Virus record (IMG/VR): IMGVR_UViG_3300043446_000421
Coordinates: 4,220 to 68,219 of that record
Strand: one strand, 5' to 3'
Length of the DNA stretch: 64,000 nt
Source: a virus
Positions 4,172 to 39,900 of the stretch are shown here, one piece after another. The position numbers were made by a program, and so were the translations under genes. The notes under the pieces were generated by a model that was given only the letters and a program-made list of their open reading frames with translations, made no database searches and was not told where the DNA came from. Each line of letters starts with the position of its first letter. Positions within the stretch are counted from its first letter, which is position 1.

Positions 4172-4278
4172 TTGAGTTGTCCTCACATGCGAGTTAAGCG
4201 CAAACGATCTGCATGTCGTCAGGCGGGGGGCCTGTTCGTAAGCGCCGGGAAACCCCCGGAATTTGATACTTTATATAC

Positions 4279-4310: not shown

Positions 4311-4312
4311 TC

Positions 4313-5221: not shown

Positions 5222-5232
5222 TATTTAACTCC

Positions 5233-5904
5233 TTAAACGCTTGCTGCGCCAGTCGGGTTGAGATACGAATGCCCACCGTTGTACGATACGACGTTCGGAG
5301 TGCCTTCGACGAGAGTGATGTAGGGCATGTTCCACTTGACGATAACTTCAGTGTAGTTGCCGCTGCCATCAACAGATTCTGCAATACCGGCGATGACACG
5401 CACGGGCAGAGTAAAGGCAGTGTTCGAACCAGAGTCATACACGCCGATGTTGGAGTTACCCGAGATCGTGGTATTAGAAGCGGGTTGCGAAATTGCCAAG
5501 TTATCACCTACCACGAGGGGGGAGATACCGGTGATGGTGGTCGAAGTTGCACCGCCAGTCACAGCTACTTGGAACAGTTGGTCGGGGTCATCTGCTACAT
5601 AAGCCAAAATGTCCGACGCGTTGGTGCTGGCAGTGTAGTAGTTGACGAACTGCTTCTGACCCGTAGTAGGGTTAGTGTAGCTGCAACCAAGGAATACACC
5701 GACAACGCCTGTTGCCGAGACAGTGGTAGTACCTGTTTCTTTAACGATAGTGCCGCTCGAAATACGAACGATGTCACCGTTATTGATTGTGGTACCGTAG
5801 TTTGCTGCAATCGGGATTTCACGAGTCTGGCCCGCGAATACCTGACCGCCGATCAGATTGACCGGCTTAAACCCGTAAGGGGCTGATACAGTCGGATAAG
5901 CCAT
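5233..5904 (-). CDS. Capsid-associated structural protein
   Basis: 223 aa MAYPTVSAPYGFKPV...VGVFLGCSY...DDPDQLFQV; immediately precedes MCP. Confidence 0.7.
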   Translation of the reverse strand: MAYPTVSAPYGFKPVNLIGGQVFAGQTREIPIAANYGTTINNGDIVRISSGTIVKETGTTTVSATGVVGVFLGCSYTNPTTGQKQFVNYYTASTNASDILAYVADDPDQLFQVAVTGGATSTTITGISPLVVGDNLAISQPASNTTISGNSNIGVYDSGSNTAFTLPVRVIAGIAESVDGSGNYTEVIVKWNMPYITLVEGTPNVVSYNGGHSYLNPTGAASV

Positions 5905-7327: not shown

Positions 7328-7720
7328 TTATGCGCGGCGGATGCCACGTGGGTCTTCGACAACTGCTTCCACAGTGTCGTCGTTAATCATGCGGAACTCT
7401 TGCCCGTGAATCTTCAGTCGGGTACCGCTATTCGGACGAGCTAAAATGAAATCCCCCGGCTTACACCATGGGCCACTTGGGAAACGCTTTTCGTCTTTGT
7501 AGCAATCTGGCCCGAGGGCGATTACAAAAAATACGGTTGCCAATACCTCTTCAAAATGACGAGTTTGGTCTGCTTTGATCAGGCCGCTCTCGTAGGTGTC
7601 TTCAATTTCCGGTAGCCCAACAAGGATGTGATACCCGGTTGGCTGCGGCAATTGTTTGGCTTTCTCTTCTGCTTCTTGTGGTACTACACCGCTTTCTGTA
7701 GCGATTAGTATTTCACTCAT
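7328..7720 (-). CDS. GroES-like co-chaperonin
   Basis: PQPTGYHILV...SGLI...VIALGPDCY...KPGDFIL...GTRLKIHGQEFRMINDDTVEAVV follows the Cpn10 pattern. Confidence 0.8.
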   Translation of the reverse strand: MSEILIATESGVVPQEAEEKAKQLPQPTGYHILVGLPEIEDTYESGLIKADQTRHFEEVLATVFFVIALGPDCYKDEKRFPSGPWCKPGDFILARPNSGTRLKIHGQEFRMINDDTVEAVVEDPRGIRRA

Positions 7721-7907
7721 CGTCGTGACGCTCCATTTGGTCTGCAAGGTCTAATATGAATCCTTCTGCGATGGATAGACCCCGAATCTCCCCGCACATT
7801 GCGCGATACTCTGCGTAATCCTTTGCAGACGCCCCGCTCATTGCCGCAGCAAGTTGCGCCTGTTTTTCGTTAATTCTGTCTTTAATAATAGCCAGTGCTT
7901 TGTCCAC
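7713..7907 (-). CDS. Small hypothetical protein between portal and GroES
   Basis: 64 aa; DYAEYRAMCGEIRGL. Confidence 0.65.
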   Translation of the reverse strand: MDKALAIIKDRINEKQAQLAAAMSGASAKDYAEYRAMCGEIRGLSIAEGFILDLADQMERHDDE

Positions 7908-7910
7908 TGA

Positions 7911-10376
7911 TTACTCCTTTGTAGGGGTTTGTTTTGCCCTTAGTTGTTGCTGCAATTGCGCATGGGATTTAGCTACGTCGATACCCATACGAACACCGGA
8001 CTCCTCTTGACGAGCCGCCAACTCAGCCCTATCTTTGGCGCTCTTCGCGCCCACCTGCATACCTGCAATTTCTTTCTGTGCTTCGATGCGCTCACGCTCG
8101 ATGTCGAGTTGATCTGCTTTTGCCGCAGCATCAATCTCCAACTTCTTCTGCTTGAGTTGAACTTCTTGCGCCTTAAGTGCCAATTCTTGCTGCTGCATTT
8201 GCACAACTGGATCTTGCGCGGCCTGTTGCGCCTGTTGGGCTTGTGCTTCTGCGGTATCTTTCTGCAACAGCTTCTGTGCCGCCATTGCCATCATGCGGCT
8301 AACTTCAACTTCCATATCTTCTGGAATCGTTTCGCCATCCTCGTAGTCCGGAGTGTTCAGAGGAATACCCAGTTGTTCTTCGATCTGCTTGCGGTACTGG
8401 AACGCAATATGCTCGTTAATATGCGCCATAGCGGCAGCAGTTATGGTGGGGGCTTGTGGGTTTTGCCCAACCAACGCAGCAATCTTGGGGTCTTTCATTG
8501 CAGCGATGTGAACTGCGATGTGTGCCTCATGGTCCTGATACAGGAAAGCTTTGACCGGCTTCATATTCAGAATAGCCATGTTCTCCGTTACAGGATCTTT
8601 AGGCTTCTGATCTTCTGCTGTCGGAATAAGCTTGCCGATGTTCTTGATGCCCAAGACCTCCAGCATCTGACGGTTCAACTCCACTTGGTCGTAGATCTGC
8701 GGAGCTTGCTGCGCCATCTGCATAACTGCTTGGTATTGCACCACTTTCTGCGACATAGTTGCCGCATTCGGGTCGCTAACCGGGATCACATCTACATCGT
8801 CGTAGTCCTGACGACGCGCACGGCGTGGGCCTTCTTGTGGTTCGTAGCTGTATTCCGCAGGGGCGTAGGCTGCAATGATATGTTTCAAGAGCTTGAACTC
8901 TTGCTTCATGGCGAAGTGGATGCGAGCCTGAACAGCCGACATCACTTTTAACTGACGCTCCAACAGTGCTAACGTTGTTCCAACAGGGGCTTGCGCCGAC
9001 ATATCCGAGACTTGCAGATCCGCAGCAGATGCAAAACGCCGACCTTCATCGACGATCTGGTCCATCAACTGCTTCAACACAAGACTTGGTTCTTTATACG
9101 GCAGCGGTAAGATGTTGTCTCGTATGGTGCCAGAGGCCACATCCACGTCCCGGAACTCGCCCGGTGCAATCGGCGTGTCGTCACCCTTGGTGCGCATACC
9201 TTTTGACTTCAGACCACCCGGCAAATTGGACAGCGTACCTGCATCCACCAACTGACGGAGGATAGACGTACCACTCTTAGCGTACGCGCCGATCAGATGA
9301 ATCAGGCCGAAGCAATAAAAGCCAAAGCCGGGGATGTAGCCGTAGTGGACGAAGTGAGTGCGCTTCTGTTTAGACTCATCATCCGGCTCGTAGTTACGAC
9401 GGATGGCCAGCACCTTGCCACTGCTCTTCTCCAGCGTGACGATGTAAGGCAATGCTATACCATCAGGGTCTTCATACCCTTCAAGGTCGAGGTCCACCTG
9501 CATTTCCAAGAGCTTGTAGCGGTCGTCCGTAGTCGCACGGAACCCCATCTTCTCGGCAATCTTCTTCTCTACATCGTCCAGCGTGTTGACCGGGTCGCCC
9601 AAGTCCACATCCCGATAGAAGCCCGCCACTTGCAGCTTCTTCAACTCGTTCTCGGTCTTGCGCATGACGTGTGTTACACGCTCTGCGGTCTGCAAATTAC
9701 TCGCGCCATATGGCACCACGACATCTTCCGCAGGGACAAAAATAGACACCTGCCTATCCAGTGCCGGGTCAAAGTACACCTTTTTGAACGCGTTGCCTGA
9801 CAGACCCAAACCCCACAACATACGCTCGTGCTCACTGCGGTATTCCGTCATTACCTCAGTAAGCTGGTAATTCATATCATTTTGGACGCGTTCAGCCGCT
9901 TCTTTCTTTTCTGTAGTTTCTTTGCCAATGATTTGCGTTTTAACCGGACCAGCAGCCGGGAAAGTCGCCATGATGGTTTCAGACTGGAATTTAACCAATG
10001 CTTCAGATAACAACGGATGGTATACGCCACAGGCTCCCTCCCACGGTTCGCTACGCTCCTCAAGCTTCATCCCCAGCAACTCCAGACCGTCTACATAAGT
10101 CTGCATCCAGTCTTTGCGGCTACCCACATCATCGTCAAAGTCAGAGAGAAGCTCCGCCGCCAACCCTTCAAGCACATCTTCACTGATTTTCTCAGCAAGG
10201 TTTGCGTTGAACTCATCCTCTTCTTCCTCACGAGGCTCGATCTCAATCTCCAGCCCGTCCATGCCAATACGCACGGCTTCCGGATCTTCAATCTCAATCT
10301 CGATCTCAGGCTCGTTTTCTGCTGCCATGCCCCCCAAGCCAAGTGGAGCGCGATTCAATGCTTTATCGATTGCCAT
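7911..10376 (-). CDS. Portal protein
   Basis: 821 aa after terL; P22-like portal features with Gln-rich coiled-coil C-terminal barrel. Confidence 0.85.
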   Translation of the reverse strand: MAIDKALNRAPLGLGGMAAENEPEIEIEIEDPEAVRIGMDGLEIEIEPREEEEDEFNANLAEKISEDVLEGLAAELLSDFDDDVGSRKDWMQTYVDGLELLGMKLEERSEPWEGACGVYHPLLSEALVKFQSETIMATFPAAGPVKTQIIGKETTEKKEAAERVQNDMNYQLTEVMTEYRSEHERMLWGLGLSGNAFKKVYFDPALDRQVSIFVPAEDVVVPYGASNLQTAERVTHVMRKTENELKKLQVAGFYRDVDLGDPVNTLDDVEKKIAEKMGFRATTDDRYKLLEMQVDLDLEGYEDPDGIALPYIVTLEKSSGKVLAIRRNYEPDDESKQKRTHFVHYGYIPGFGFYCFGLIHLIGAYAKSGTSILRQLVDAGTLSNLPGGLKSKGMRTKGDDTPIAPGEFRDVDVASGTIRDNILPLPYKEPSLVLKQLMDQIVDEGRRFASAADLQVSDMSAQAPVGTTLALLERQLKVMSAVQARIHFAMKQEFKLLKHIIAAYAPAEYSYEPQEGPRRARRQDYDDVDVIPVSDPNAATMSQKVVQYQAVMQMAQQAPQIYDQVELNRQMLEVLGIKNIGKLIPTAEDQKPKDPVTENMAILNMKPVKAFLYQDHEAHIAVHIAAMKDPKIAALVGQNPQAPTITAAAMAHINEHIAFQYRKQIEEQLGIPLNTPDYEDGETIPEDMEVEVSRMMAMAAQKLLQKDTAEAQAQQAQQAAQDPVVQMQQQELALKAQEVQLKQKKLEIDAAAKADQLDIERERIEAQKEIAGMQVGAKSAKDRAELAARQEESGVRMGIDVAKSHAQLQQQLRAKQTPTKE

Positions 10377-16663: not shown

Positions 16664-16743
16664 TTGTTCTGGTGTGAGGGATTCATAAAAACAACCCGCA
16701 CCAGAACCTCAAGTAGTACTTGACCTTAACTTGGAGAACAATC

Positions 16744-17871
16744 ATGGCACAAGTAAGCACAGCAACCCGCGTCACTCTGGACGAACTAGTTCAGGCCGTA
16801 TCAACCGTAGGTAACAAGCGCACCATCATTGCAAGGGGCGAGCCGGGCATCGGCAAGTCGTGGACGATGAAGGCACTGGCTTCAAAATTCCCGGGGCATA
16901 AGGCCGTCACAGTAGACTGCGCCCGACTGCTCGATCAGGGTGACTTCTGGGCGATGTATCTGGAAGACAAGGCGGACGGTGGCAAGGTGGCACGTCAGGC
17001 ACTGTTGGACATGTTCGACTTCGATGCCACGCAACCCATGCTCCTACTGCTTGATGAGATCGGCAAGGGTAACAAGGCGGTGATGAATGTCCTGCTGACG
17101 GTGATCTTTGACCGGCGTATCGGTGACCGCCACCTGCACCCTGACTCTATTGTGTATGCGACAACTAACCTGACGGCGGACGGGGTGGGTGACTTCCTGC
17201 CAGCCCATGCTCGCAGCCGCGCCATCACAGTGGAGATCAAGAAACCTATCGTGGGCATCAACCCGGTGACAGGCGAGGTGGCCAAGGGTTCGTTCGGTGA
17301 GTTCATGTTGAAGAACAATTTCGACTCGGCGCTAGTGGCATGGTGCGTCCGCAACCCAAGCTGCATGGACAGTTATCGTGATTGCCCGAATGACAAGGAC
17401 TGGACTAACCCTTGGGCGTTCCACCCAACGAAGGGGGCTGAGATGTACTTCTGCCCACGCAGCGCCCATGCCTGTGATGACATATTGAAAGAGCGCGAGG
17501 TCAACGGTGACCGCCTGACCATGAGCCTGTTGGCCGGTGCTGCGGGTGAGTCGTTCGCTCGAGATTTCTCGGCCTTCCTGATGGTCAAGGACAAGCTGAC
17601 TACGGTTCCGGCAATTGTCGCTGACCCCAAGGGTGCGGCGTTGCCCCCGGCGGGTGATGCGGTGTCCCACTGCGTGATGGTGCAGCAGTTGGTGCAGCAC
17701 GTGAACAAGGAAACCATCGAGCCGTTCGTCACCTACATGCAGCGTATGGGCAGTGAGTGGCAAGCCATGTTCGGGCGCAGCGTCATTGCATCCGAGAACA
17801 AGCAAGAGGTTGCCATCAAGTGCGAAGCGTTCCGCAACTGGGCGATTGCGAATCAGTGGATGTTTTCTTAA
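16744..17871 (+). CDS. MoxR-like AAA+ ATPase
   Basis: GEPGIGKS Walker A, LLLLDEIGK Walker B, YATTN sensor I, PRS sensor II. Confidence 0.85.
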   Translation: MAQVSTATRVTLDELVQAVSTVGNKRTIIARGEPGIGKSWTMKALASKFPGHKAVTVDCARLLDQGDFWAMYLEDKADGGKVARQALLDMFDFDATQPMLLLLDEIGKGNKAVMNVLLTVIFDRRIGDRHLHPDSIVYATTNLTADGVGDFLPAHARSRAITVEIKKPIVGINPVTGEVAKGSFGEFMLKNNFDSALVAWCVRNPSCMDSYRDCPNDKDWTNPWAFHPTKGAEMYFCPRSAHACDDILKEREVNGDRLTMSLLAGAAGESFARDFSAFLMVKDKLTTVPAIVADPKGAALPPAGDAVSHCVMVQQLVQHVNKETIEPFVTYMQRMGSEWQAMFGRSVIASENKQEVAIKCEAFRNWAIANQWMFS

Positions 17872-17880
17872 GGGGGATGT

Positions 17881-19083
17881 ATGAGCTTCTCTGCTGAACA
17901 ACTTTTGACACGTGCCACGGTGTGGCTCATGGAGTACCCGCCGACTTGCGCCCTGTCCGGGGTCATGTTGATGGGCAAGACCGAGGTCAATGACCGAGTG
18001 CCTACGGCCTGTACCAACGGACGTGATGAGTTCTACGGACGCAAGTTTGTGGAAGGTCTGACCGAGCCAGAGGTACGGTTCCTGAAGACGCATGAGTCGT
18101 TCCATAAGATCAAGATGGACTTGCTCACGTGGAGACATCTTTATGATGAGAACCCCAAGTTGGCCAACATGGCGAGTGACTACGTCAACAACCTGATGAT
18201 CTGGGAACTTGACCCGACTGAGCAGTACCTGAAGATGCCCAAGGGTGGGCTGTTGGACAAGCGGTTCAAGGGTATGGATACCGGCGAGGTGTACGCCTTA
18301 CTCAAACAGGAGAAACAAAATGAACAAGGCAATGGTGATGGCCAAGCAGGGCAAGGCTCGGGCGGTGGAGCGGGTGATCAACCGGAAGGCTTCGATGAGC
18401 ATGACTGGGAAGGTGCGAGCGCCCTTTCGGACGCGGAACAAAAGCTGCTTGCGGAAGAAATCGACCAAGCCTTAAGACAGGGAAAGATGTATGCCGAACG
18501 GATGAACGGCACGCTGCCCCAAGCTATCGAAGCACGTCTCGCCCCAGAGGTACGGTGGCAGGATGAGTTGGCTGAGTTCGTATCTTCTCTGTGCAGTGGC
18601 TCGGACTTGCCGTCTTTCCGCAAGCGTAACCGCCGCCGCATGGAGTCGGAAATCATCTACCCAACGTTGATCACTGAGCGCCTTGGCAAGCTGGTGATAG
18701 GTATCGATACCTCGGGTTCGATCTTCGGTAGTGACATGCTGTCTAGTTTTATGGCGGCACTGCACAACTTGTGTGAGGTTGTGCGTCCTGAGTCGGTGGA
18801 CGTCCTGTATTGGGATAGCCATGTCGCGGGGCATGAGACGTACGATGAGAGTTCCTATGCCGGGCTGCTGATCTCAGCCAGTCCAGTGGGTGGCGGTGGT
18901 ACGGAACCTCAATGCGTGGTGGATTACATGCAGCAGAAGCACCTGCGTCCTGATGCGGTGGTGATGTTGACGGACGGCGAAGTGTCATCGTGGGGCAAAG
19001 GTTGGACTGCACCCACCCTGTGGTGCATCACCGACAGGCGCGTCAAGTCGGCGGTGGGTAGATCGGTTCACATCAAACTATAA
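17881..19083 (+). CDS. vWA domain + putative metallopeptidase (DUF2201-like)
   Basis: TACTNG, HESFH (HExxH), IDTSGS MIDAS, GGGGT, MLTDG. Confidence 0.85.
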   Translation: MSFSAEQLLTRATVWLMEYPPTCALSGVMLMGKTEVNDRVPTACTNGRDEFYGRKFVEGLTEPEVRFLKTHESFHKIKMDLLTWRHLYDENPKLANMASDYVNNLMIWELDPTEQYLKMPKGGLLDKRFKGMDTGEVYALLKQEKQNEQGNGDGQAGQGSGGGAGDQPEGFDEHDWEGASALSDAEQKLLAEEIDQALRQGKMYAERMNGTLPQAIEARLAPEVRWQDELAEFVSSLCSGSDLPSFRKRNRRRMESEIIYPTLITERLGKLVIGIDTSGSIFGSDMLSSFMAALHNLCEVVRPESVDVLYWDSHVAGHETYDESSYAGLLISASPVGGGGTEPQCVVDYMQQKHLRPDAVVMLTDGEVSSWGKGWTAPTLWCITDRRVKSAVGRSVHIKL

Positions 19084-19116
19084 ACATCAAGTACTACTTT
19101 AACTTGGAGAACTATC

Positions 19117-19995
19117 ATGGCCGTACAAAACTCTGCAATTCTGGTTGACCTCAACATCTCGGCGTGGACTGGACGCAAACTGGATAAGCGCGTCTCAGAA
19201 GAGATCGATGCAAGCAAGGGCACCAAAGCCAAGGGCGGCAACTATCACAAGCACCTGCTGGCTGGCACTGACAAGCTTGATGCTGTACAGAAGATCGTCT
19301 CGGCGGTGCGTGTCTGGCACTATGAGCAAACGCTGCCTTGGTCTGACGGTGGCTCGCGCCTACTGCCAATGAAGAACTTCTTTGAGTACAAGCGCACCCT
19401 GTCCATGTTCGAGGCGCAGTTCAAACAGGCGGTGGATGAGATGTTGACTGAGTACCCCACGTTGGTGACGGCGGCTGCCTTCCAGTTGGGTGCGCTGTTC
19501 AATCGCAATGACTATCCCGATGTGGAGACCATCAAGGGCAAGTTCCGCTTCAGCTACGTCTTCATGCCTGTACCTACGGCGGGTGACTTTCGCATCCAAG
19601 CAGCGGACGATGCAATCGCGGAGTTGCAAGCGCAAGCGGAAGAACACATGAACAAGCGCGTCAATGACGCTATGAAAGATATCTGGACAAGGCTGCATAC
19701 CTGCCTGACCCACATGTCGGACAAGCTGACTGACCTGCCCACGCCACGTGTACTGAAGGACGGCACTGAGGTGTACTCGCAGGTGTTCCGTGACTCACTG
19801 GTAAACAACGCTGTAGAACTATGCGGCCTGTTGACCAAGCTCAACGTGACCGATGACCCTAACCTCGAGCAAGCACGACACAAGCTGGAGGAAGCGATCA
19901 CCGGTGTGACTGCGGAGGGTCTACGTGCTGACGATGGTGAGCGTGATCACCTGAAGAAGCAGGTCGATGAGATCTTGAAAGCGTTCGCATTCTAA
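19117..19995 (+). CDS. DUF3150-like protein
   Basis: LVDLNISAWTGRKLD...TLPWSDGGSRLLP...FNRNDYP; usual partner of AAA/vWA. Confidence 0.65.
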   Translation: MAVQNSAILVDLNISAWTGRKLDKRVSEEIDASKGTKAKGGNYHKHLLAGTDKLDAVQKIVSAVRVWHYEQTLPWSDGGSRLLPMKNFFEYKRTLSMFEAQFKQAVDEMLTEYPTLVTAAAFQLGALFNRNDYPDVETIKGKFRFSYVFMPVPTAGDFRIQAADDAIAELQAQAEEHMNKRVNDAMKDIWTRLHTCLTHMSDKLTDLPTPRVLKDGTEVYSQVFRDSLVNNAVELCGLLTKLNVTDDPNLEQARHKLEEAITGVTAEGLRADDGERDHLKKQVDEILKAFAF

Positions 19996-21880: not shown

Positions 21881-22041
21881 TGAGATATGAAGTGTATGAC
21901 GAGGAGGGAAAATTGTTCCGCAAGTTCTGGGATAGACACGAAGCAGAGAAGTTTATGCAGCAAGGCTGGAAGCTGGTAACAAAGGCCAAACACAAAGAGC
22001 CTAAGCCGACAGTCGAGAAGTTCGGCGAAGCACGTTGGTAA
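21880..22041 (+). CDS. Hypothetical protein (53 aa)
   Basis: Manual ORF MRYEVYDEEGKLFRKFW...; GGAGG RBS; overlaps upstream stop. Confidence 0.55.
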   Translation: MRYEVYDEEGKLFRKFWDRHEAEKFMQQGWKLVTKAKHKEPKPTVEKFGEARW

Positions 22042-22065
22042 TTAACTTAACCTTGGAGAATCAAA

Positions 22066-22731
22066 ATGGATATGAAAGTCAAAGAAACCGCAGTTGTTAT
22101 TTCCGCACCCAAGTTCAACACCGTTGAAGTTGTACTACAGGGCACCGCCCCGCTGGTAGTTGCGCGGTTCAGCAAGAAAGCCGAGTTGATGGCGAAGATG
22201 GCCGAGGGCAGCAGCGCCAAGAGCAAAAAGGAGCGCACCGCCCGTGACTACGATAAAGAAGCAGAAGATGCGCGGTATCGCGCCCCTGAAGGTTGGGAAG
22301 GTGTCAATGCTGCGGCCTTCCGTGCGGGCATGATCAGTGCCTGTCGGCTGGTGGGGTTCAAGATGACGCTGGCAAAGTTGTCTGTGTTTATCGAAGCTGA
22401 TGGGTTTGATAAGCAGGATGGGATTCCGTTGGTGCGCGTCTACGGCAAGAGCGAAACCTTTACCGCACATACCCGCAATGCGACAGGTGTGGTTGATGTA
22501 CGTAGCCGCCCAATGTATCGCGAGTGGGCTATCAAGCTGCGCGTTCGTTTTGATGCGGATCAGTTCAATGTACAAGACGTTTATAACTTGATCGCCCGTG
22601 TGGGTGGGCAGGTGGGCTTGTGCGAGGGTCGTCCAGATTCCAAATCGTCCGCAGGTTGTGGCTTTGGTACGTTTGAGGTGGTGCCGAATGATCGTCAGAA
22701 AGAAGTCACAAAGAAATTCGGCATTAAGTAA
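22066..22731 (+). CDS. Stand-alone RAMP/Cas7-like RNA-binding protein (Vipr-like effector)
   Basis: N-terminal strand VEVVLQGTAPLVV, 'GVNAAAFRAGMISA' helix, RSRPMYREWAIKLRVRF, and C-terminal Gly-rich loop GGQVGLCEGRP...GCGFGTFEV, the RAMP/Cas7 signature; immediately followed by the array. Confidence 0.7.
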   Translation: MDMKVKETAVVISAPKFNTVEVVLQGTAPLVVARFSKKAELMAKMAEGSSAKSKKERTARDYDKEAEDARYRAPEGWEGVNAAAFRAGMISACRLVGFKMTLAKLSVFIEADGFDKQDGIPLVRVYGKSETFTAHTRNATGVVDVRSRPMYREWAIKLRVRFDADQFNVQDVYNLIARVGGQVGLCEGRPDSKSSAGCGFGTFEVVPNDRQKEVTKKFGIK

Positions 22732-22733
22732 CT

Positions 22734-23232
22734 AGGCAGGTGGGGCTTGGCTGCGCCCGGTATGGTAGTGCTGGGTGCGGCGCGGTAATGCAAGGCAGGT
22801 ATGGATTGGCAACGTACGGATAGGTATGGCGCGGTTCGGTTCGGTAAGGTTCAGTAAGGCAGGTACGGTGTGGGCAGGTGAGTTGTGGTCTGGTCCGTTC
22901 CGGCAGGGTAAGGCAGGTGTGGCTCGGTTCGTCGCGGCACCGTCAGGATCGTTCGGGTAAGGTAAGGTAAGGCAGGTATGGCGCGGCTAGTTCGCGCAAG
23001 GTACGGTTGGTTCCGGTGTAGTAAGGCAGGTCAGGCGAGGTTTGTCGGAGTATGGTGCGGCGCGATGCGGTTTGGCTCACTACGGTAAGGCAGGTGGCGT
23101 TAGGCGGCGCAAGGTGGCGTTAGGTGTGGCGCAGTAAGGCAGGTGAGGTGTCGCACGGTGTGGTGCGTCCGGGTGGGGTGAGGCAGGTACGTTGAGGCGA
23201 GGTGGGGTTTGGTGAGGTCAGTTAAGGCAGGT
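22734..23232 (+). ncRNA. Guide-like array: 10 AGGCAGGT boundaries enclosing 9 units of phased GGY-NN pentamers
   Basis: Boundaries end at 22741, 22800, 22864, 22918, 22977, 23031, 23095, 23144, 23188, 23232 (periods 59,64,54,59,54,64,49,44,44 = 5n+4). 61 of 91 triplets are exact GGY; all but one of the rest differ by one base. The repeat structure is directly observed; RNA function is inferred. Confidence 0.8.
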
Positions 23233-23252
23233 AAATAACTTAGGAGAATGAA

Positions 23253-23732
23253 ATGACAACAGAAACAATGAAAGCAGAACGGAAGTTTCTTGAGAAGCTG
23301 GCAAAGAACAAGGGCGGTATGTTGCTGGTCGATGATGTACTGGCTGTTGCAGCAGACCCAATGTGCGTATTGCACAAACACTTTCAGTGGGATAACACCA
23401 AAGCGGCTGAAGCTTATCGCAAAATGCAAGCGCGGCAGCTTATCCAGAAATGCACTGTGACTATTGAGAAAGCCCCTGACGTACAGATTCGCGCATTCGT
23501 CAGTCTGGCAAGCGATCAGTATGCAGGTGGTGGGTACCGCATGACCGCAGACGTGTTATCAGACAACGATCTCAAAGCAGAACTGCTGCATGACATGATG
23601 GTGACCCTTACCAAGTGGAAGAAGCAGATCAATTTGTTGGACAAGGAAACCGCCGCCATCATTGATACGTTAGAAGATGTTGTGCGTACCAAAGTAGGTA
23701 GTAGGCAAGCAGCCGTTCGGAGCAGGCCGTGA
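23253..23732 (+). CDS. Hypothetical protein linked to the RAMP-like gene/array
   Basis: AGGAG RBS right after the last repeat; LLVDDVLAVAADP..VLHKHFQWDNTKAAEAYRKMQARQLI...RAFVS. Confidence 0.75.
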   Translation: MTTETMKAERKFLEKLAKNKGGMLLVDDVLAVAADPMCVLHKHFQWDNTKAAEAYRKMQARQLIQKCTVTIEKAPDVQIRAFVSLASDQYAGGGYRMTADVLSDNDLKAELLHDMMVTLTKWKKQINLLDKETAAIIDTLEDVVRTKVGSRQAAVRSRP

Positions 23733-23911
23733 AACCTCCTGAGATCGTGGCCGTAGCGTTCTACATAACCATCGCCCTGTTCTCGCTGTACTACGGCATG
23801 AAGGTCATATCAGCGGAGCCGCAGTTGATGTGCGGTGTGGCAGAGATCAGCCCGGACTTTAGCGCAGCAGACAGGGCGCGGTGCAGACAGATGAGGGGGC
23901 ATAAGTTATGA
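23729..23911 (+). CDS. Small membrane protein
   Basis: N-terminal TM; CGVAEISPDF...CR. Confidence 0.55.
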   Translation: MKPPEIVAVAFYITIALFSLYYGMKVISAEPQLMCGVAEISPDFSAADRARCRQMRGHKL

Positions 23912-24174
23912 ATGATCTTGCTTTGTATGAGTTGGGTCTTGCCATGCCTGTTTGCGCGGTATGCAACAAGCCAGTCGATAGGGTTGAGTCTATGTATGAC
24001 CCCAACTATGACGGCAAAATATTCAGGGTTCACTGCCACGGCAAAGTAGAGCAGCAGATTCTTGGCGCTTACACCATGATGGACGCAAAACAAATCACGT
24101 TTGGCAAAGCATTTGATGCCCCAGCACTAGAACGCATGAACAAAGCCGCTGAAGATAACGGGGAGGAGTTATGA
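23908..24174 (+). CDS. Zn-binding hypothetical protein
   Basis: CAVC...VHCHG. Confidence 0.6.
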   Translation: MNDLALYELGLAMPVCAVCNKPVDRVESMYDPNYDGKIFRVHCHGKVEQQILGAYTMMDAKQITFGKAFDAPALERMNKAAEDNGEEL

Positions 24175-26643: not shown

Positions 26644-27035
26644 ACGTAATCGCAGCACTTATAGAAAGAATGGGTCAGGCACCGGGAGAGTTTGCTATAG
26701 AGGGGTCATCTCGAAATACTCGCTGGGCGCACATAACAGATTGCATATATGAAGAAAGTAAGACAAGACCTTGTGTGTTTACCCAAGAAGAGATCGATGC
26801 ATATCTGACTGGCCTCGGCAAGGTTGTTCGCGCACAGATAGAAGAACAGATTTGCATAGAGATACTAAACCCACTACGCCCGGATAGGGGCGAACAGTTG
26901 GAGTTGTTTCCGGCGCAGAGCGCGTACCCGCCGGGAGGTAAACCGCTGACCATAAAACAAATAACAGCCGATGCATTGAAGATACTTGAAGATGAGCTGT
27001 ACAAAAATAGCAAACCAGAGAAACTAATCCTATGA
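26640..27035 (+). CDS. Hypothetical protein
   Basis: ATGA-coupled to both neighbours. Confidence 0.55.
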   Translation: MNVIAALIERMGQAPGEFAIEGSSRNTRWAHITDCIYEESKTRPCVFTQEEIDAYLTGLGKVVRAQIEEQICIEILNPLRPDRGEQLELFPAQSAYPPGGKPLTIKQITADALKILEDELYKNSKPEKLIL

Positions 27036-28855
27036 AAATAATTACAATCGATTTCGAGACGTACTACGGCAAAGCCCTTGGATTCAAAACACACACAACC
27101 GAAGAATACGTGCGTCACCCTGACTTTGAGGTGATTGGCGTTGGCATAAAGAAAGGGAAAGATGAAACGCAATGGTTCAGCGGGACTCACCAAGAGATAC
27201 AGGCATTCTTCAGCAAGTTCGACTGGGCAAACAACTACGTCCTCGCACACAACACCGCGTTTGATGGGGCAATACTGTCGTGGCTTTTTGGGATTACACC
27301 GAAAGGTTGGTTGGACACTCTTTCGATGGCACGTGCTATCCATGGCGTGGATGCAGGAGGTAGCCTTGCAGTATTGGCAGAGAGGTATGGAATTGGTAAG
27401 AAGGGCGAGGAAGTAACCAACGCGATAGAAAAACGCCGCAAAGACTTCTCACCAGAAGAACTCGCCCGGTATGGTGAGTATTGCTGTAATGATGTGGAGC
27501 TATGCTACGAGTTGTTCGACATCTTCATGCAATCTTTTCCGCTGGCGGAGCTTAAGGTTATAGACACAACGCTCAAGATGTTTGTGGAACCCATCCTCGA
27601 GTTGGATTTACCGTTGTTGGAGCAGCACTTAGAAGATGTTAAGGAGCGCAAGGAGAAGTTATTAGAAGCTGCCGCATCTGATATAGATGACTTAATGTCG
27701 AACGATAGGTTTGCGGAGTTGTTAAAGAAGCTGGGAGTTGAGCCACCCAAAAAGGTCAGCGCACGTACTGGCAAGGAAGCATGGGCATTCGCCAAGACGG
27801 ATGAAGAGTTCAAGAAACTTGCCGAACATCCCGACCCGAGGGTGCAAGCCTTGGTCGCAGCAAGATTGGGTAATAAGACTACACTGGAAGAGACACGTAC
27901 ACAACGCTTTATAGACATCGCTAAACGCGGGGCCATGCCGGTCCCATTAAAGTACTACGCCGCGCATACTGGACGCTGGGGTGGGGATGACAAGATCAAC
28001 CTGCAAAACCTGCCAAGCCGTGGGCAGAACGCAGGTAAATTAAAGAAGGCAATACGCGCCCCCAAGGGCTACGTGATGATCGATGCCGACTCTGCACAGA
28101 TCGAAGCGCGGACTCTTGCGTGGCTGGCTGAACAGTATGACTTGGTGGAGGCGTTTAAGAATGGTGAGGACGTATACAAGATCATGGCTAGTGCGATCTA
28201 CAATAAACCGGTTGAACAGATCACTAAGGAGGAAAGGTTCGTTGGAAAAACTACCATCCTCGGTTCAGGTTACGGCATGGGGGCGCAGAAGTTCCAAGAC
28301 CAACTTAAAACGTTTGGTACAGATATTTCACTTGCGGAAGCTCAACGGATCATATCGGTTTATCGGGAAACGTACCCCGCCATCCCTGCGCTCTGGACGG
28401 CATCGAGCCGGGCGCTAGACCACATCTTCAGGAACAAGCAGTACGCACTGGGCAAGCCGGGGGTCATCAAGGTAGACACGGAGAACTTTGGGTTCGTGCT
28501 GCCAAACGGGCTGCTCTTGCGGTATGATGGGTTCCAGAAGATTACGCAGGATGGCAAGGATCAATACATCTACAAGACCCGCAAAGGTGTGGTTAAAATC
28601 TACGGCGGCAAGGTGGTGGAGAATCTGTGTCAGGCCATCGCACGGTGTGTCATCGCAGAGCAGATGTTGAAAATCAGTAAACGATATAAAGTCGTGCTTA
28701 CTGTGCATGATGCCGTGGCTTGCGTGGCGAAGAAGGAAGAAGCGGACGAGGCTCGCGCTTATGTTGAGGAGTGTATGCGCTGGACCCCAGCATGGGCAGA
28801 GGGCTTACCATTGAACTGCGAATCAGGGATGGCAGAGAGTTATGGCGACTGCTAA
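27032..28855 (+). CDS. DNA polymerase family A with 3'-5' exonuclease
   Basis: IDFET exo I, HNTAFD exo II, NLQNLP, DSAQIEAR motif A, KTTILGSGYG motif B, TVHD motif C. Confidence 0.95.
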   Translation: MKIITIDFETYYGKALGFKTHTTEEYVRHPDFEVIGVGIKKGKDETQWFSGTHQEIQAFFSKFDWANNYVLAHNTAFDGAILSWLFGITPKGWLDTLSMARAIHGVDAGGSLAVLAERYGIGKKGEEVTNAIEKRRKDFSPEELARYGEYCCNDVELCYELFDIFMQSFPLAELKVIDTTLKMFVEPILELDLPLLEQHLEDVKERKEKLLEAAASDIDDLMSNDRFAELLKKLGVEPPKKVSARTGKEAWAFAKTDEEFKKLAEHPDPRVQALVAARLGNKTTLEETRTQRFIDIAKRGAMPVPLKYYAAHTGRWGGDDKINLQNLPSRGQNAGKLKKAIRAPKGYVMIDADSAQIEARTLAWLAEQYDLVEAFKNGEDVYKIMASAIYNKPVEQITKEERFVGKTTILGSGYGMGAQKFQDQLKTFGTDISLAEAQRIISVYRETYPAIPALWTASSRALDHIFRNKQYALGKPGVIKVDTENFGFVLPNGLLLRYDGFQKITQDGKDQYIYKTRKGVVKIYGGKVVENLCQAIARCVIAEQMLKISKRYKVVLTVHDAVACVAKKEEADEARAYVEECMRWTPAWAEGLPLNCESGMAESYGDC

Positions 28856-33717: not shown

Positions 33718-33817
33718 TACAGGTTAAGGAGGCTAGGGAGCGCACCCGAAGAGGGTAGTTCGCCGTCACTATCCCTGCCTACCTTATTTTAAAAAGACGG
33801 TGAATCACGAGGCGGCT

Positions 33818-36664
33818 ATGCTATCGAGGACAGACTTTTTGTCTTTAGTCTTACCACCCACAGGCTACTACTGTGTGATGGGGCTGAAGGGTAAAGACAA
33901 ACCACCAAAACAAGTATTCGTATCCTCGGTAGAAGAAATCAACAACTACGCAGATGCCTTTGTACACAGGGGGTATGATGCCTATTTCGCGTTGGCTTCT
34001 TTTACCGATGACTCTGGGCGTACCAACGCCAATGCAGAACAACTTAATTCTTTCTTTATTGATCTGGACTGCGGTCTGGGTAAGCCATACGCCGATCAGA
34101 CTGCGGGTCTGGTCGCGCTAAAAGAATTTGTCGGCAAGACTGGACTGCCAAAGCCCACGGTCATTGTGAACTCTGGGCGCGGTGTACACGCCTACTGGGT
34201 GGTTGAGCAGCCGCTGCCGAAGGCGGAGTGGAAGACGCTGGCTGAAGGTCTCAAGGCACTCTGCACTGCACAGAACCTACATGCTGATCCAGCAGTTACC
34301 GCAGACGTTGCGCGTATCCTGCGCATACCGGACACACTGAACTTCAAGGACATAGATAATCCTCAGCCGGTCAAGATATTACTCCACGGCCCACGGGTGA
34401 GCGTCGAAGCTATACGTGAAAAGATAGTTTCAGAAGAGCTTCAAATAGCGGGCGAACCGCCGTTCAAACGCACCATTGACCCGACTACGTTGGCACTGAT
34501 GGGCAACTATCAGTCGCGGTTCAAGACCATCCTGATCAAGTCGATACAGGACGAGGGCTGTGCCCAGATCAAATATATCTACGAGAATCAGGAAGAAGTT
34601 GAGGAGCCACTGTGGCGAGCCGGGCTGTCCATCGCGCAGCAGTGCGTGGATGGTGAGAAGGGTATTCATATCCTGTCCAACAAGCACCCCGGCTACGACA
34701 AGGCAACAACTATCCGTAAGGCTGCGCAGACCAAGGGACCGTATACCTGCGAGACGTTCAAGAAGCTGGCACCCAAGGCGTGTGAGAACTGCAAGCTCAA
34801 GATAACATCACCCATCCAGATCGGACGCGAGATCATTGAGCCAGACGATTCGCCCAAGACTGTCGAGGCGCTTGAGCCGATTACTGAGGAGATCAGGACG
34901 TATCAAATCCCGGCGTACCCGTTTCCGTTCTTTCGAGGGCATGTTGGGGGTATTTATCGCAGGGCAAACAAGGACGAGGAGAACGACAAGGATGAGCTTC
35001 TTTTTCCGTATGACTTCTATGTTGTGAAGCGGTTGTACGACCCAGAGGATGGTGAATGCGTGATGATGCGTCTGCATCTCCCCAAAGACGGTGTGCGTGA
35101 GTTCATCATGCCGTTGAGAGAAGTCATATCCAAGGAGAAGTTTACTGGCAAAATTGCTGAATATGGCGTTGCTGTATTAGGAAAGAAACAGGAGAAACTT
35201 ATGCACTACACAACACGGTGGGTCGAGGAATTGCAAGCGATAGGCAAGGCAGAAGTAGCACGGAAACAATTTGGCTGGTTGTCGGACGATAGCGCGTTCA
35301 TCCTTGGCGACAAAGAGATCAGGCACGATACGGTGGAGTACAGCCCACCCTCATCCGCCACGCTGCCTCTAGTACCCGCCTTCGGTGCGCGGGGTGATTT
35401 CCATGACTGGAAGAACATCATCAACCACTACGCCACACCCGGTCTGGAGATGCGAGCGTTTGCGTTCTTCATGGGTTTTGGTGGCCCTCTATTGAAGTTT
35501 ATCGGTGGTGGTTTCTTAAATGGTTTCCTGCTGAACCTGATTAGCCCGAATGGTGGCACAGGTAAATCTACACTGCTACATGCCATCAACAGTATCTACG
35601 GCAACCCGCAAGCTTTGATGATGACCTACAAGGATACGCATAACTTCAGGCTGCATCGGTTTGGGGTGCTACAAAACATCACGGCCACCATCGACGAGCT
35701 TACCAATATGAAGGCAGACATGATGTCTGACGTGGTGTACGACATTACCTCCGGTGTGGGCAAGGGCAGGATGTCTGGCAAAGCCAACGTGGAGCGCATC
35801 AATAACACTACGTGGAAACTCCCGGCAGTGTCTTCATCGAACAAAGCAATCCGCGACATCCTCCTGACCGTCAAAGGGTTCCCCGAACCGGAACTACTGC
35901 GCATACTGGAGGCTGATCTGGTCAACGATCTGAGCATGGACGCTATCCAAGCCAAGCGCCACTTCGGCAAACTGAGCAGCCACTACGGCCACGCGATTAC
36001 GCCTTACCTGCAATACACCATGACGCACCTGCCAGAGATCATGGTCAATATGGAAAAGCTGATGGAGCGCATTGACCGCGCAGCCAACATCACAGGCAAC
36101 GAGCGGTATTGGTCAGCGGCGCTGGCTGCGGGTATTGGTGGCGGCATCATCTCCAAGAAGCTGGGATTGCACGACATTCCGACTGCGCCTGTATTTGACT
36201 TTGCGATTGAGTTGGTCAAGGAGAACCGCCGCAAGAATAAAGACTCACTGTTCAGCGCAGATGACTTCATCGGCACATTCTGCCAGCAGCACCGGGAAGG
36301 AATGCTCATCGTCAACGCCAACAAAGACAAGCGCACGGGGATTGAGATGGGGGCGATACGCGAACCACGCGGTGCCTTGATTATGCGTTACGAGCCAGAC
36401 ACCGGTCTGTTGTTTATCTCAACGCGCTTCTTCCGGGAGTATTGCAACAAGCTGCACATGAACTTCGAAGCGGTCTTGGAGCCTTACAAGAAGAACAAGT
36501 CCTTCATCGACCAGCGGCGCAAGCGGATGTTTGCTGGAACTCCTTCAGACGTTGCTCTAAATGTAATGTGTTTGTGTTTTGATACCAACCGGCTGGAGAG
36601 TTTCGTTGAGAACAAAGAGGCACTCTTAAATGCTCCTCCTTTCGAATCTCTCGATCCATATTGA
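33818..36664 (+). CDS. Primase-helicase (RepB-like primase + DUF927 + P-loop)
   Basis: FIDLD, SGRGVHAYW, RILRIPDTLN primase motifs; GGTGKS and TIDELT NTPase motifs. Confidence 0.85.
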   Translation: MLSRTDFLSLVLPPTGYYCVMGLKGKDKPPKQVFVSSVEEINNYADAFVHRGYDAYFALASFTDDSGRTNANAEQLNSFFIDLDCGLGKPYADQTAGLVALKEFVGKTGLPKPTVIVNSGRGVHAYWVVEQPLPKAEWKTLAEGLKALCTAQNLHADPAVTADVARILRIPDTLNFKDIDNPQPVKILLHGPRVSVEAIREKIVSEELQIAGEPPFKRTIDPTTLALMGNYQSRFKTILIKSIQDEGCAQIKYIYENQEEVEEPLWRAGLSIAQQCVDGEKGIHILSNKHPGYDKATTIRKAAQTKGPYTCETFKKLAPKACENCKLKITSPIQIGREIIEPDDSPKTVEALEPITEEIRTYQIPAYPFPFFRGHVGGIYRRANKDEENDKDELLFPYDFYVVKRLYDPEDGECVMMRLHLPKDGVREFIMPLREVISKEKFTGKIAEYGVAVLGKKQEKLMHYTTRWVEELQAIGKAEVARKQFGWLSDDSAFILGDKEIRHDTVEYSPPSSATLPLVPAFGARGDFHDWKNIINHYATPGLEMRAFAFFMGFGGPLLKFIGGGFLNGFLLNLISPNGGTGKSTLLHAINSIYGNPQALMMTYKDTHNFRLHRFGVLQNITATIDELTNMKADMMSDVVYDITSGVGKGRMSGKANVERINNTTWKLPAVSSSNKAIRDILLTVKGFPEPELLRILEADLVNDLSMDAIQAKRHFGKLSSHYGHAITPYLQYTMTHLPEIMVNMEKLMERIDRAANITGNERYWSAALAAGIGGGIISKKLGLHDIPTAPVFDFAIELVKENRRKNKDSLFSADDFIGTFCQQHREGMLIVNANKDKRTGIEMGAIREPRGALIMRYEPDTGLLFISTRFFREYCNKLHMNFEAVLEPYKKNKSFIDQRRKRMFAGTPSDVALNVMCLCFDTNRLESFVENKEALLNAPPFESLDPY

Positions 36665-36830: not shown

Positions 36831-36876
36831 TATATTCGCGCCGTAACTCCTCGCTTCTCCAAGGGCAATGAGGTTT

Positions 36877-36903
36877 GCCCCCGCCCCGTGCGGGGGTATT
36901 TTT
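36877..36903 (+). terminator. Intrinsic terminator between the convergent arms
   Basis: GCCCCCGC-CCCGT-GCGGGGGT-ATTTTT. Confidence 0.7.
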
Positions 36904-39900
36904 ACAGCCCCGCCATCCCTCGCAGCTTCGGTAAGTTGTACGCCATCAGAAGTTCTTTCTCCTGCCGTAAAATCTCATCCGTCTTTTCACGCTTCAAATC
37001 TGGTGGTATCTGCGGATCGTTTGCAATAATGCTTCGGTACTTACGCAGAGCGGATAGTTGCTGCTCGGCTTTGTGCACCACACCTTTCATAGCGTAGAGC
37101 TTCATCTTGTCTTCGGTCAGGTACTCCTGCAACTCCTGTACCCGGCCTTCGCGCTTAAACATATTGACGGTATCCACCACTTGATCGACAGACTCACGGA
37201 AGTCGTAGAACTCTGACTTGTACCCACGGCCTGTGGTGTCGTACATGAATGTGCTTAACTGCGGCAGTTTAGATACCGGCTTGCCCATCCGGTTAGGGTT
37301 GGCTACCGCATCCGTCGCATCCAGCACAAACGCACCCAGCATACCGGTGTAGCCACGGATCAGATAGTCAGCTTTCATTGGCGAGATACCCACCAGCCCA
37401 AACAATTTGGCAAGCTCAGACGTGCCTTCGGTAAACTGCAACGAGGGGTCGAGGTTCTTCATACCCATCCCGACAATTGGATTGCCAGTAAAGAATGAGT
37501 AGTTGACGGCCACTTCCAATGCAGGTTTGACAAGCTGCGGGGTCAGATTCATGCCGCTGTACGCAGTGATGAACGCATCTCTAAAGCCCTTGTAGAACGC
37601 CGTTTCATCCTGCGGACGATCCGTACCTTGGCTGACTACATAACGCACGATGCGCTCTGGGATGACCTTGAACATAAAGCCAACTTCTGGAGCGACAGGG
37701 ATCTTTAGACCTGTGCCGGGGATGATGTAGTTCTTGTCCCGCTCATAATCCTCCAGCCCTTTGTAATCGTCATCGTCCCCTACCAACATAGCGTAGATCG
37801 CAGACATGGCTGCAATCTTGAGACCAGTTGCTAAGAAGAGTTTCTGCGCGGTGCGCTTGTCTTCCATCGACACGCCTTTGCCACGCATAGTGCGGTACAG
37901 CACATCCATACCTTGTATGTACGCGTTTAGGAACGGCACCATGTGGCGTAGTGTACCGATGACGGTGCTATTACCGCCATGCTTAAAGTTGATGTACTCC
38001 TTGGCACGGTACAGCGCCAACCTGCGGTCGCCTTCCGGCATCTCAGGAGACTTAGTTTCGTTGATAGTCTGCTCATAAATTGCAGCACGGACAGCCAAGT
38101 CAGCAGCCAGCGAGAATTTCTCCAGCTTGTCCCAAGCCTTCTTGAACGCGCCGCGCTCTTCCAACCCATACTTGATGCGAGCACGTTCCATAGCTTGTTG
38201 TGGCATACCGTCATACACACCGGACACACCGATTCTTGCAAGCTCAAGCGGGATGCCCTCACCGGCCATAGCGTGAATAAAGTTCTTGGCAACCTTGGCT
38301 GGCAAACTGAATGGCTGTTTCACACCCGACAGGAGCATCGCACGGTAGGTACCGTCCTGAATCAACTGACTGACAGCAAACGCTGGCATGTGGGTCACGA
38401 AGCTACGCAAGGTGCTTTGGGCGAAGCTAAACGCCTTCAGGATCGGACCCAGCGCCACGATATTGGAAGCAAACGCGCTTCTATCCAAGGCGCTACCCAG
38501 TAGGTAAGCAGTACGCTCGCCGTCCTTGTAGGTAAAGATCAGCCTGTCTTTATTGAACTTCTGTGCGTAGTCAATCGCATCTTGGGTCTTCAGTTCAAAC
38601 GCATCAGGCAAACTCTCAACCATACGGCGCGAAGCATACGCATTCATGCCGGTCTTAACCGCCCAGCTAGTCAGGCCAATCATGTTGTCAAACACGTTGG
38701 CGATTTCTTTGCTGCTACCTTGACGATCTAGAATAGGCAGTTTGGCAATACTGATTACCCCGCCCTTGAAGGACGCTGGGTTCTCGTCAAACAGGTTGGT
38801 CTCTTCTTCTACCCGTGTCCAAGGCACATAACCTGCTGCCTCTTTCCAGTCGTTGGCTTTGGCTTGGCTGATACGGCCAGTCTGCACCAAGAAGTCGATC
38901 AGCCCATTCTTGTATTCCGTAAAGACATCGAAAGCTTGCTTGAGTTCAGGAAACTTCTCCATGGCCTCAGTACCAGCAGCAATCTCTTCGTCAGTTACGT
39001 GGTGGGTAATCAGCATGTCGGTAAGTTTCTTCACCGCTGCCTTATTCCCTTTTTTCTCCGCTGCTACGATATCTCTGGCGATCTTCTCGTTGTGTACGTT
39101 GATCTCTTTGGCACGTTGCGCAATGAACGCGTTATGCCCCAACTTCAGCGCAGTCTGGAGCGAGCCTAGACGGTCACCCAGCTTGGTCATGATGTCGAAG
39201 ACCCCAGCCATGGTTGCTTTGCGGTCAACGATCTCAGCCAGACCATCCTTGTTTATCTCGATACCGCCGTGCTCCATGGCACCTTCAGCCAGTGCGGCGT
39301 GGTCCTGTGCTTGGGCTTGTGCGAGGTCACCGCGAATATCACCTAACGAGTCAACAAGTGTATTGTTGAAGTTGGTCTGCATCTTTTCCACTGCTGTAGC
39401 ACGAGCATCAACAAGCTCGCGGCGAATTACGGCCTCAAGTGACGGCCCACCTTCTGGCCGCTGCACGACACCAATCATCTTTTTCAGGATAGAGTCAGGG
39501 TCGCTTTCAGTAGGATTACCAGCACCCTTCATGCGCTCATTCAACTCCTCTGCTTCCTTACCTTCGGGAGTCAGTTCTTCCTTGCGGGTGCGGTACAGGA
39601 TGCGCTTGTCAGCAGGATCGTAGGTACCCTTGTTAAAGATAGACTTTATCTGGCTGCTATCATAGACGGCGAGGTTCTTGCGCCCACCTTCTTGCACATA
39701 GAAACCGTCAAAGCCAGCAAATCTAATGGCTTCCTGAACTGAGGCGCTTTCAATTGCCTCCCATTCCCCATGCATAACATCATTCATGAGGTCTTCATCA
39801 TCTAAAATATCAAACAGCTTATTTAAATGGCTGCGTTTCTGGAAGTCAAACGGGTTCTGTGCGCTGACATAAACCGGCATGATGTTGGCACGGGAAGGAA

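Follow-up and report, generated by a model that had tools for sequence, protein, structure and literature searches.

The window analyzed here is a 64,000-nt stretch of viral DNA, comprising positions 4,220 to 68,219 and thus most of the 68,219-bp IMG/VR virus record IMGVR_UViG_3300043446_000421; coordinates are counted from its first letter. A 521-nt intergenic stretch at 22732–23252 is occupied by an array of short repeats that fills the entire gap between two + strand open reading frames (ORFs), from the stop codon of the ORF at 22066–22731 on the 5′ side to the start codon of the ORF at 23253–23732 on the 3′ side. Because of the grammar of the array, the protein encoded next to it and the genomic context, we conclude that this locus is very probably a phage-encoded VIPR (Viral Interference Programmable Repeat) system, of the kind presented in the accessible parts of 2026 preprints (10.64898/2026.04.26.720920 (PMC13142463), 10.64898/2026.04.26.720927 and 10.64898/2026.10.15.759431). 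In this assignment a vipr gene is followed by nine vrRNA guides in a staggered array and then by a probable accessory gene.

The array is composed of nine guide units of 44–64 nt each, followed by a terminal delimiter. The sequence AGGCAGGT is present in 10 copies on the + strand of the array (at 22734, 22793, 22857, 22911, 22970, 23024, 23088, 23137, 23181 and 23225); in the rest of the 64-kb window it is absent from the + strand and occurs three times on the − strand. Distances between successive copies are 59, 64, 54, 59, 54, 64, 49, 44 and 44 nt, each of which equals 5k+4. The units are built of GG-Y-N-N pentamers (Y, pyrimidine; N, any base), with 8–12 pentamers per unit in the window, and at the unit borders a 4-mer, GGCA, moves the pentamer phase by one base. 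The border sequence GGTAA-GGCA is the only constant part separating the back-to-back units. A strict five-pentamer pattern, GGYNNGGYNNGGYNNGGYNNGGY, occurs three times in the window, every time inside the array, and found no match in any of 100 dinucleotide-preserving shuffles. The original prediction, made from the letters alone, had recognized this repeat structure at 22739–23232, an interval that falls within the array, and our analysis confirms it; the accompanying arithmetic also holds, since 8–12 NN dinucleotides per unit specify 16–24 bases across 24–36 nt of target. Six more period-5 GG patches in the window were examined and rejected as arrays.

Scans for other kinds of signal in this region were negative. 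Rfam at E ≤ 10 returned two chance-level matches over 22000–24000, neither of them to the array, and a promoter and terminator scan gave none scoring beyond shuffles. Folding of the + strand of the array gave a minimum free energy of −167.4, compared with −173.8 in shuffled sequences (z = +1.44), indicating no excess of Watson–Crick structure, and the other strand folds no better than shuffled sequence (z = +0.59). As a side observation, the junction TAAGGCAGGT, found at 22788–22802 and at every unit border, is the Shine–Dalgarno consensus TAAGGAGGT plus one added C.

All nine units lie on the + strand. Unit 0 (22734–22792) carries the NN string GG TT TG CC AT AG TG GC GC AA (AA). Unit 3 (22911–22969), with GT TC TC GC AC CA TC CG AA AA, has a P4-type tyrosine integrase as its predicted target, and unit 5 (23024–23087), with CA GA TT GG AT GC GC GC TT TC (AC AA), is predicted to target motif A of PolA, a family-A DNA polymerase; unit 5 is kept in 11 arrays belonging to three phage groups. 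An IMG/VR scan with the first nine NN of unit 1 (22793–22856; 12 pentamers) yielded no target. Among the loci searched, none was found for units 2 (22857–22910) and 4 (22970–23023), which have 10 pentamers each, or for units 6 (23088–23136; nine pentamers) and 7 (23137–23180; eight pentamers), which are common to seven and eight arrays, respectively. A target for unit 8 (23181–23224; eight pentamers) was likewise not found. The last delimiter, AGGCAGGTAA, and then TAGGAG, the ribosome-binding site of the gene that follows, take up 23225–23252 on the + strand.

The 3′ end of unit 3 (22956–22970) contains three identical GGTAA pentamers, and one metatranscriptome contig is shorter by exactly 5 nt at this place, which suggests slippage by one pentamer. 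Contigs from two metatranscriptomic libraries of a single study carry units of the window letter for letter in differently ordered arrays, and we therefore conclude that units are reshuffled between relatives. With DNA carry-over possible and RNA ends not visible in contigs, the same data give a weak hint of transcription.

The vipr gene (22066–22731, + strand) encodes a 221-residue Cas7-like RAMP protein, an assignment based on a sequence match in the PDB, the fold of an AF2 model and the adjoining array. The sole PDB sequence match is chain 36pp_D, ‘SUSP1 Vipr protein’ (phmmer E 0.0043), and a profile of ten homologues matches the same chain with E 5.5e-4. The alignment spans the strand–helix–G-loop region, including the G-loop segment G.G[DE].RP, and places D177 and R179 of SUSP1 Vipr on E187 and R189 of the 221-residue protein; a Gly-rich segment, G184..G201, is invariant in all ten aligned homologues. 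For the AF2 model, which has a predicted local distance difference test score (pLDDT) of 69, the top Foldseek matches are Csm3/Cas7 chains from type III and type VII CRISPR complexes (E 1.2e-5, probability 1.0, template modeling score 0.42–0.50), and 48 PDB matches were obtained at E ≤ 0.001 with a fold library that is older than the Vipr entries. The protein belongs to phrog_4652 and has no Pfam match. By analogy with characterized systems, it should be a Vipr that polymerizes on guide RNA with one protomer per pentamer.

The ORF on the other side of the array (23253–23732, + strand; 159 amino acids; phrog_15946) is a probable accessory gene of the VIPR operon, and we refer to it as a candidate vap (Vipr-accessory) gene because of its conserved position. 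It is invariably found 3′ of the array in relatives, and in Mycobacterium phages its homologue directly follows the vipr homologue (e.g. gp49–gp50 of Donkeykong). The 159-residue protein has no Pfam family above the cut-off, and a protein atlas places it only in unnamed clusters of viral hypothetical proteins. No cas families were found in PHROGs or Pfam searches, each covering 10 neighboring ORFs.

Relatives of the locus share its organization. A single-protein search of genome contigs with the 221-residue protein found no related loci. In IMG/VR, 28 loci are related to it, and each locus that reaches past the gene has a similar array in the same place; these arrays vary in unit number, up to ∼25 units or 1.3 kb, and the unit lengths are still 5k+4. 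Homologues also occur in bacterial genomes from many different phyla, where same-strand GG period-5 arrays adjoin the gene at 28 of the 29 loci, and 27 Mycobacterium phage records contain a Vipr homologue. A Viterbi parse of 24 distinct arrays (the window, 22 IMG/VR relatives and cyanophage Cy-LDV1) delivered 250 clean units, mostly of 7–14 pentamers, for a total of 2368 pentamers. Position 1 is G at a frequency of 0.89 and position 2 at 0.88; position 3 is T (0.52) or C (0.39), giving a pyrimidine frequency of 0.91, and is G at 0.008. Positions 4 and 5 are near uniform, with all 16 dinucleotides represented.

Two of these relatives are annotated phage genomes. Cy-LDV1 (BK059895; L046) has GGCNN arrays at 4622–4845 and 5412–5609, one of them 3′ of the Vipr homologue g34 and the other 3′ of g33, just before an excisionase gene; the delimiter in these arrays is GGCAGGC. 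Mycobacterium phage Donkeykong (NC_051648, ∼36850–37264; L047 1981–2395) has a GGCNN pentamer array where the coding sequence (CDS) gp48 is annotated, immediately before the Vipr homologue gp49, with gp50 being the homologue of the 159-residue gene. The supposed ‘hypothetical protein’ encoded by gp48 is thus probably a vrRNA array misread as a gene.

Homologous units of different phage groups were compared to determine which pentamer positions carry information, with homology detected on the NN of alternate pentamers and identity scored on the left-out pentamers to avoid circularity. This cross-validated comparison produced 340 detections, versus 120 when the pentamer order was shuffled. Held-out identities at positions 1–5 were 0.82, 0.76, 0.54, 0.65 and 0.63, for baselines of 0.79, 0.77, 0.44, 0.27 and 0.26, and at four-fold degenerate sites the flanking gene approaches saturation between those groups (identity 0.23–0.54). 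Position 3 toggles between T and C, and deviations from GG are not inherited between homologous units. The NN dinucleotides are the conserved, information-bearing part of each unit.

This conservation across groups argues against a TRAP-like RNA, in which a protein would bind GGY every 5 nt of a sponge or leader and the NN would be inert spacers. The (G/U)AG repeat RNA recognized by TRAP in Bacillus is single-stranded and contains 9–11 repeats of a triplet plus a 2-nt spacer; the strict 5-nt period of the array, its conserved triplet followed by two variable bases and its lack of excess secondary structure all resemble such sites. The spacers of TRAP sites are uninformative, however, whereas in the array the NN are the positions most conserved between homologous units and match targets, and the NN strings yield natural matches that are in frame and appear with a skip of one base only. 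The protein partners also differ, TRAP being a beta-sandwich ring and the product of the adjacent gene a RAMP. We therefore give the TRAP-like explanation very little weight.

One predicted target of a guide in the window is that of unit 5. When its ten conserved NN were written as NNx (each NN followed by one skipped base) and searched for exact matches in metagenome contigs, at least 120 were found. All 80 matches that we examined encode the same peptide, ..DW(S)QQEFGIAAALSGD..M..AY.SGDPY, with the NN falling on codon positions 1 and 2 of Q-E-F-G-I-A-A-A-L-S in a single frame. The skipped base is codon position 3 in 80 of 80, and the skipped bases differ between matches. The gene matches Pfam DNA_pol_A (E 3.9e-27), and the site is motif A of this polymerase; unit 5 does not match the PolA of the phage itself, whose motif A is different (DADSAQIEARTLAWLA). 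In relatives, unit-5 variants with one more CA pentamer at the 5′ end extend the match to the Gln codon immediately upstream; this applies to all 80 loci for four of five guide variants and to 62 of 80 for the fifth. A different guide, from a relative, matches motif B of the same gene (TQYGMGA), 171 nt downstream of motif A, in 59 of the 80 loci. The unit-5 pattern with at most one mismatch was present in two of 401 genomes sampled from one phylum, and a reversed-pattern control in none. Five genomes with Vipr-homologue prophages had no unit-5 site at up to two mismatches. The exact unit-5 site is also missing from IMG/VR (see below), which fits elements that are not themselves recognized as viruses.

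The polymerase gene lies in small integrative elements inserted in bacterial chromosomes, and a second gene of the same elements is the predicted target of unit 3. Its NN match the integrase gene at 18 of 20 bases in locus L149, 17 of 20 in L153 and 16 of 20 in L133, compared with 15 of 20 for the best of 30 shuffles. The footprint, SSFRDWVSEET, falls on the HGFRSSFRDW catalytic (HxxR) region on the antisense strand, and the skip is at codon position 3. The gene product has the Pfam domains Arm-DNA-bind_3, Phage_int_M and Phage_integrase and is a P4-type tyrosine integrase. In these three loci the integrase is matched by at least five guide families: guides of relatives match TVHGFRSSFRDW at 21 of 22 bases and LSPIWVSKTETAS at 22 of 24, and another matches the catalytic-Tyr region, IGNKVEAAYR, at 17 of 18. 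The integrase gene is located ∼2.8–3.4 kb upstream of the PolA site in all three loci, and the gene order in L149 and L153 is integrase, two small ORFs, PolA (599 amino acids) and two small ORFs. Bacterial housekeeping genes lie upstream of the element in L149, which indicates that it is integrated in a chromosome. The core orf217–PolA–orf143 is present in 48 of the 80 target loci, and an integrase gene is found upstream of PolA in six of the 22 loci that extend far enough. In L149 (oriented), at 4057–5649 and 7425–8316, small conserved ORFs of ∼217 and ∼143 amino acids accompany the targeted PolA. As far as our tools show, orf217–PolA–orf143 is an undescribed three-gene module of integrative elements.

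We compared skip sizes using 194 guides, leaving out ten unit-5-like guides, on the set of 80 target loci (442 kb), with ten shuffles per guide and counting sites with at least 90% NN match. With a skip of one base there were 53 real sites, compared with 8.9 ± 2.9 (maximum 15) for shuffled guides. Skips of 0, 2 and 3 bases gave 2, 4 and 7 real sites for shuffled values of 6.0 ± 3.3, 8.9 ± 2.3 and 9.4 ± 3.5, respectively, and thus no excess. Of the skip-1 sites, 51 of 53 are in ORFs, and 50 of these 51 skip codon position 3; the corresponding number for shuffled guides is 11 of 33. Among the wobble-skipping sites, 41 are on the sense strand and nine on the antisense strand. Since most matches, including those of unit 5, have the sense of the mRNA, the guide would be unable to pair with the mRNA, pointing to DNA as the target. 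The original prediction had proposed that each NN reads two target bases with one base skipped and that the skipped base could be the codon wobble, and had called for the comparison of gap sizes against shuffled-NN controls; the enrichment at skip 1 alone, together with the codon phase of these sites and of the unit-5 matches, supports this interpretation at the level of sequence. Its remark that there was no self-match also stands: across the phage's own 68-kb record, none of the nine window guides has a best NNx match that goes beyond the range obtained with 50 shuffles.

The G-rich + strand of the array (G at 228 of 521 positions), in which position 3 is almost never G and G-runs are exactly two long, and the replication genes nearby could instead point to an element that acts as DNA, such as a G-quadruplex or R-loop, a set of iterons, a packaging site or a recombination hot spot. 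However, an element of this type needs neither conserved NN nor a phase shift of one base per unit, it does not predict wobble-phase NNx matches in foreign polymerase and integrase genes, and the number of pentamers per unit (7–14) shows no preference for multiples of four. We consider the probability of such an explanation to be close to negligible.

Other searches for targets were negative. No enrichment was seen for any skip in 335 kb around the loci of relatives. A match of 14 of 14 bases between a 7-NN guide of a relative and L007/L008 was rejected, being within chance for 230 guides. Unit 0 has a perfect NNx match (20 of 20) to a gpU-like tail gene (WFMPDQMGGK) in two complete P2-like IMG/VR contigs, at G016:C1:8268–8297 and G017:C1:24776–24805, where the skip is at codon position 1; a third IMG/VR match, 18 of 20, is at a gene end in a contig of 64% G+C. 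On the contigs matched by unit 0, no other guide scored above shuffles. With ∼0.06–0.1 such matches expected per guide, the perfect match of unit 0 is probably due to chance. The single IMG/VR match to the first nine NN of unit 1 was rejected because it fails when extended.

Several observations weigh against a VIPR system with the targets proposed here. For seven of the nine guides in the window no target was found, only units 3 and 5 being matched, and three exact IMG/VR scans, with units 5, 1 and 0, gave zero, one and three matches, none of them convincing. In 0.93 Mb of relatives' genomes, 16 whole contigs included, there was no enrichment at any gap size (for units with at least nine NN and up to two mismatches, skip 1 gave five real and 2.0 shuffled matches). 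The 80 target loci were selected by the skip-1 unit-5 pattern, and the comparison of skips covers guides other than unit 5. Its 53 skip-1 sites cannot be treated as independent: one guide at one homologous site accounts for 38, and the set reduces to ∼13 guide–site classes. The best multi-guide target loci have a G+C content of 42–44%, versus ∼51% for the phage. The similarity to a characterized Vipr is weak, with 51 residues aligned and W178 of SUSP1 Vipr opposite G188, and the candidate vap product has no recognizable fold (poor AF2 model, pLDDT 59). The units lack the ∼40–50-nt 3′ tail and pseudoknot of type II vrRNAs as characterized in the accessible parts of the preprints. Finally, we infer transcription, processing, ribonucleoprotein formation and silencing at this locus from other VIPR systems.

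Some of these points would also fit a true VIPR array whose matches are coincidences with conserved motifs, the real targets being elsewhere, for example in prophages of the host. The target loci come from many habitats and span many G+C contents, most window guides are unexplained, and the match of unit 0 in the wrong codon phase shows that perfect matches do happen by chance. Coincidence does not readily explain why every examined unit-5 match falls on one motif in one frame, why a number of independent guide families point to two genes that lie in the same elements, or why enrichment is confined to a skip of one base, with the skip nearly always at the wobble position. We regard this alternative as quite unlikely.

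The VIPR assignment can be compared with what the accessible text of the 2026 preprints provides. There, Vipr is a minimal RAMP that polymerizes on vrRNAs of alternating GGY and NN; the protein holds GGY, and NN pairs with double-stranded DNA such that every third target base is skipped. This ‘1 nt skip rule’ places the skipped base mostly at the codon wobble, and the natural targets are competing satellites and prophages, including the excision recombinase of a satellite (10.64898/2026.04.26.720920, 10.64898/2026.04.26.720927 and 10.64898/2026.10.15.759431). The idea of NN-x targeting is equivalent to this rule, and the mechanism was therefore already known from these preprints. The same accessible parts describe an RRM core, a glycine-rich loop and a thumb in Vipr, vrRNAs with 9–16 YNNGG pentamers, and 667 VIPR systems, characterization having been performed in two closely related ones, from Enterobacteria and Pseudomonas. 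Further features of VIPR systems are a vap gene within the operon, processed vrRNAs that co-purify with Vipr, and targeting of either strand that needs no PAM and avoids the system's own genome.

As far as those accessible parts go, the locus resembles the type II systems of Escherichia phage SUSP1 and a Pseudomonas fulva prophage in its GGY/NN pentamer RNA, in the small RAMP gene adjoining this RNA in a phage with an accessory gene (here a candidate) after it, in NN that match natural targets with a 1-nt wobble skip and no self-targeting, and in targets that are genes of competing mobile elements, integrase or recombinase included. It differs in several respects. The protein has ∼20% or less sequence identity to SUSP1 Vipr, and vipr and the candidate accessory gene are separated by the array, unlike in SUSP1 and P. 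fulva. Unlike the guides of those two systems, the guides of the window are predicted to recognize catalytic motifs in two genes, for a family-A polymerase and a P4-type integrase, that are spread across many habitats. Type II vrRNAs end in an invariant, folding 3′ tail, which contains a pseudoknot in the SUSP1 clade; the window array has tail-less units and no excess structure, and we therefore do not place the locus in type II. A closer likeness may be the ‘staggered arrays’ mentioned beside tailed vrRNAs in the legend of fig. S18 of 10.64898/2026.04.26.720920, in which neighboring vrRNAs share a 1-nt overlap. Such an overlap fits the 5k+4 units and the GGTAA-GGCA-GGT junction of the window, a likeness drawn from the legend alone.

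If the locus functions as do the SUSP1 and P. fulva systems, the array would be transcribed as part of the operon and then cut to yield vrRNAs of unit length. On each vrRNA, Vipr protomers would polymerize, one per pentamer, gripping G1, G2 and Y3 and exposing N4 and N5. Each NN would then pair with two bases of double-stranded DNA, with one target base flipped out between pairs (NNx), and the complex on DNA would silence transcription of the target. The system would probably serve to shut down replication and excision in competing elements, either integrative or satellite-like, and skipping of the wobble base would make targeting robust against synonymous escape.

The Cas7/Csm3 filaments of Class 1 CRISPR systems share with this locus a RAMP-like fold and the use of one protomer per fixed step of guide RNA, and the accessible parts of the VIPR preprints describe a thumb that periodically interrupts pairing in both. 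The CRISPR step is 6 nt, with five bases paired and one flipped, whereas here it would be 5 nt with two paired, corresponding to 3 nt per step on the target. CRISPR-Cas direct repeats are ∼25–40 nt in length; the constant element in the window is 9–12 nt, and the ‘spacers’ are themselves pentamer-periodic. The locus has no CRISPR repeats, and no cas1, cas2 or other cas genes occur among the neighboring ORFs scanned.

The nature of the predicted sites leads us to a more tentative proposal, which has somewhat less than an even chance of being correct: staggered arrays could be innate, broad-spectrum repertoires of guides directed at motifs, with the single GGCA step setting the unit boundaries. 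The guides may read codon positions 1 and 2 of invariant catalytic motifs rather than serve as records of particular enemies, the motifs matched here being motifs A and B in PolA and, in the integrase, a core-binding motif as well as the regions of HxxR and the catalytic Tyr. If so, one guide would cover the replicases or integrases of elements across many bacterial lineages and habitats, the NN would be under purifying selection, and units would be reshuffled between phages. The 4-nt GGCA step would break the register of the Vipr filament without a tail or ribozyme and would constitute a new mode of measuring and releasing guides.

For the VIPR assignment itself, the present analysis offers computational support for the NNx code in a distant clade of uncultured phages, with homologues reaching Cy-LDV1 and Mycobacterium phages. 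What is new here is the tail-less staggered array and the predicted guides against catalytic motifs of the polymerase and integrase of integrative elements. These targets would extend the picture in the accessible parts of the preprints, in which VIPR immobilizes satellites by silencing their recombinase. The analysis also supplies testable guide–target pairs and a simple grammar for finding arrays, and it flags misannotated CDSs such as Donkeykong gp48.

Elsewhere in the window, a MoxR-type AAA ATPase, a VWA/DUF2201 protein and a DUF3150 protein are encoded upstream of the locus at 16720–19995. The phage's own family-A polymerase is encoded at 27032–28855 and a DUF927 primase-helicase at 33800–36664.

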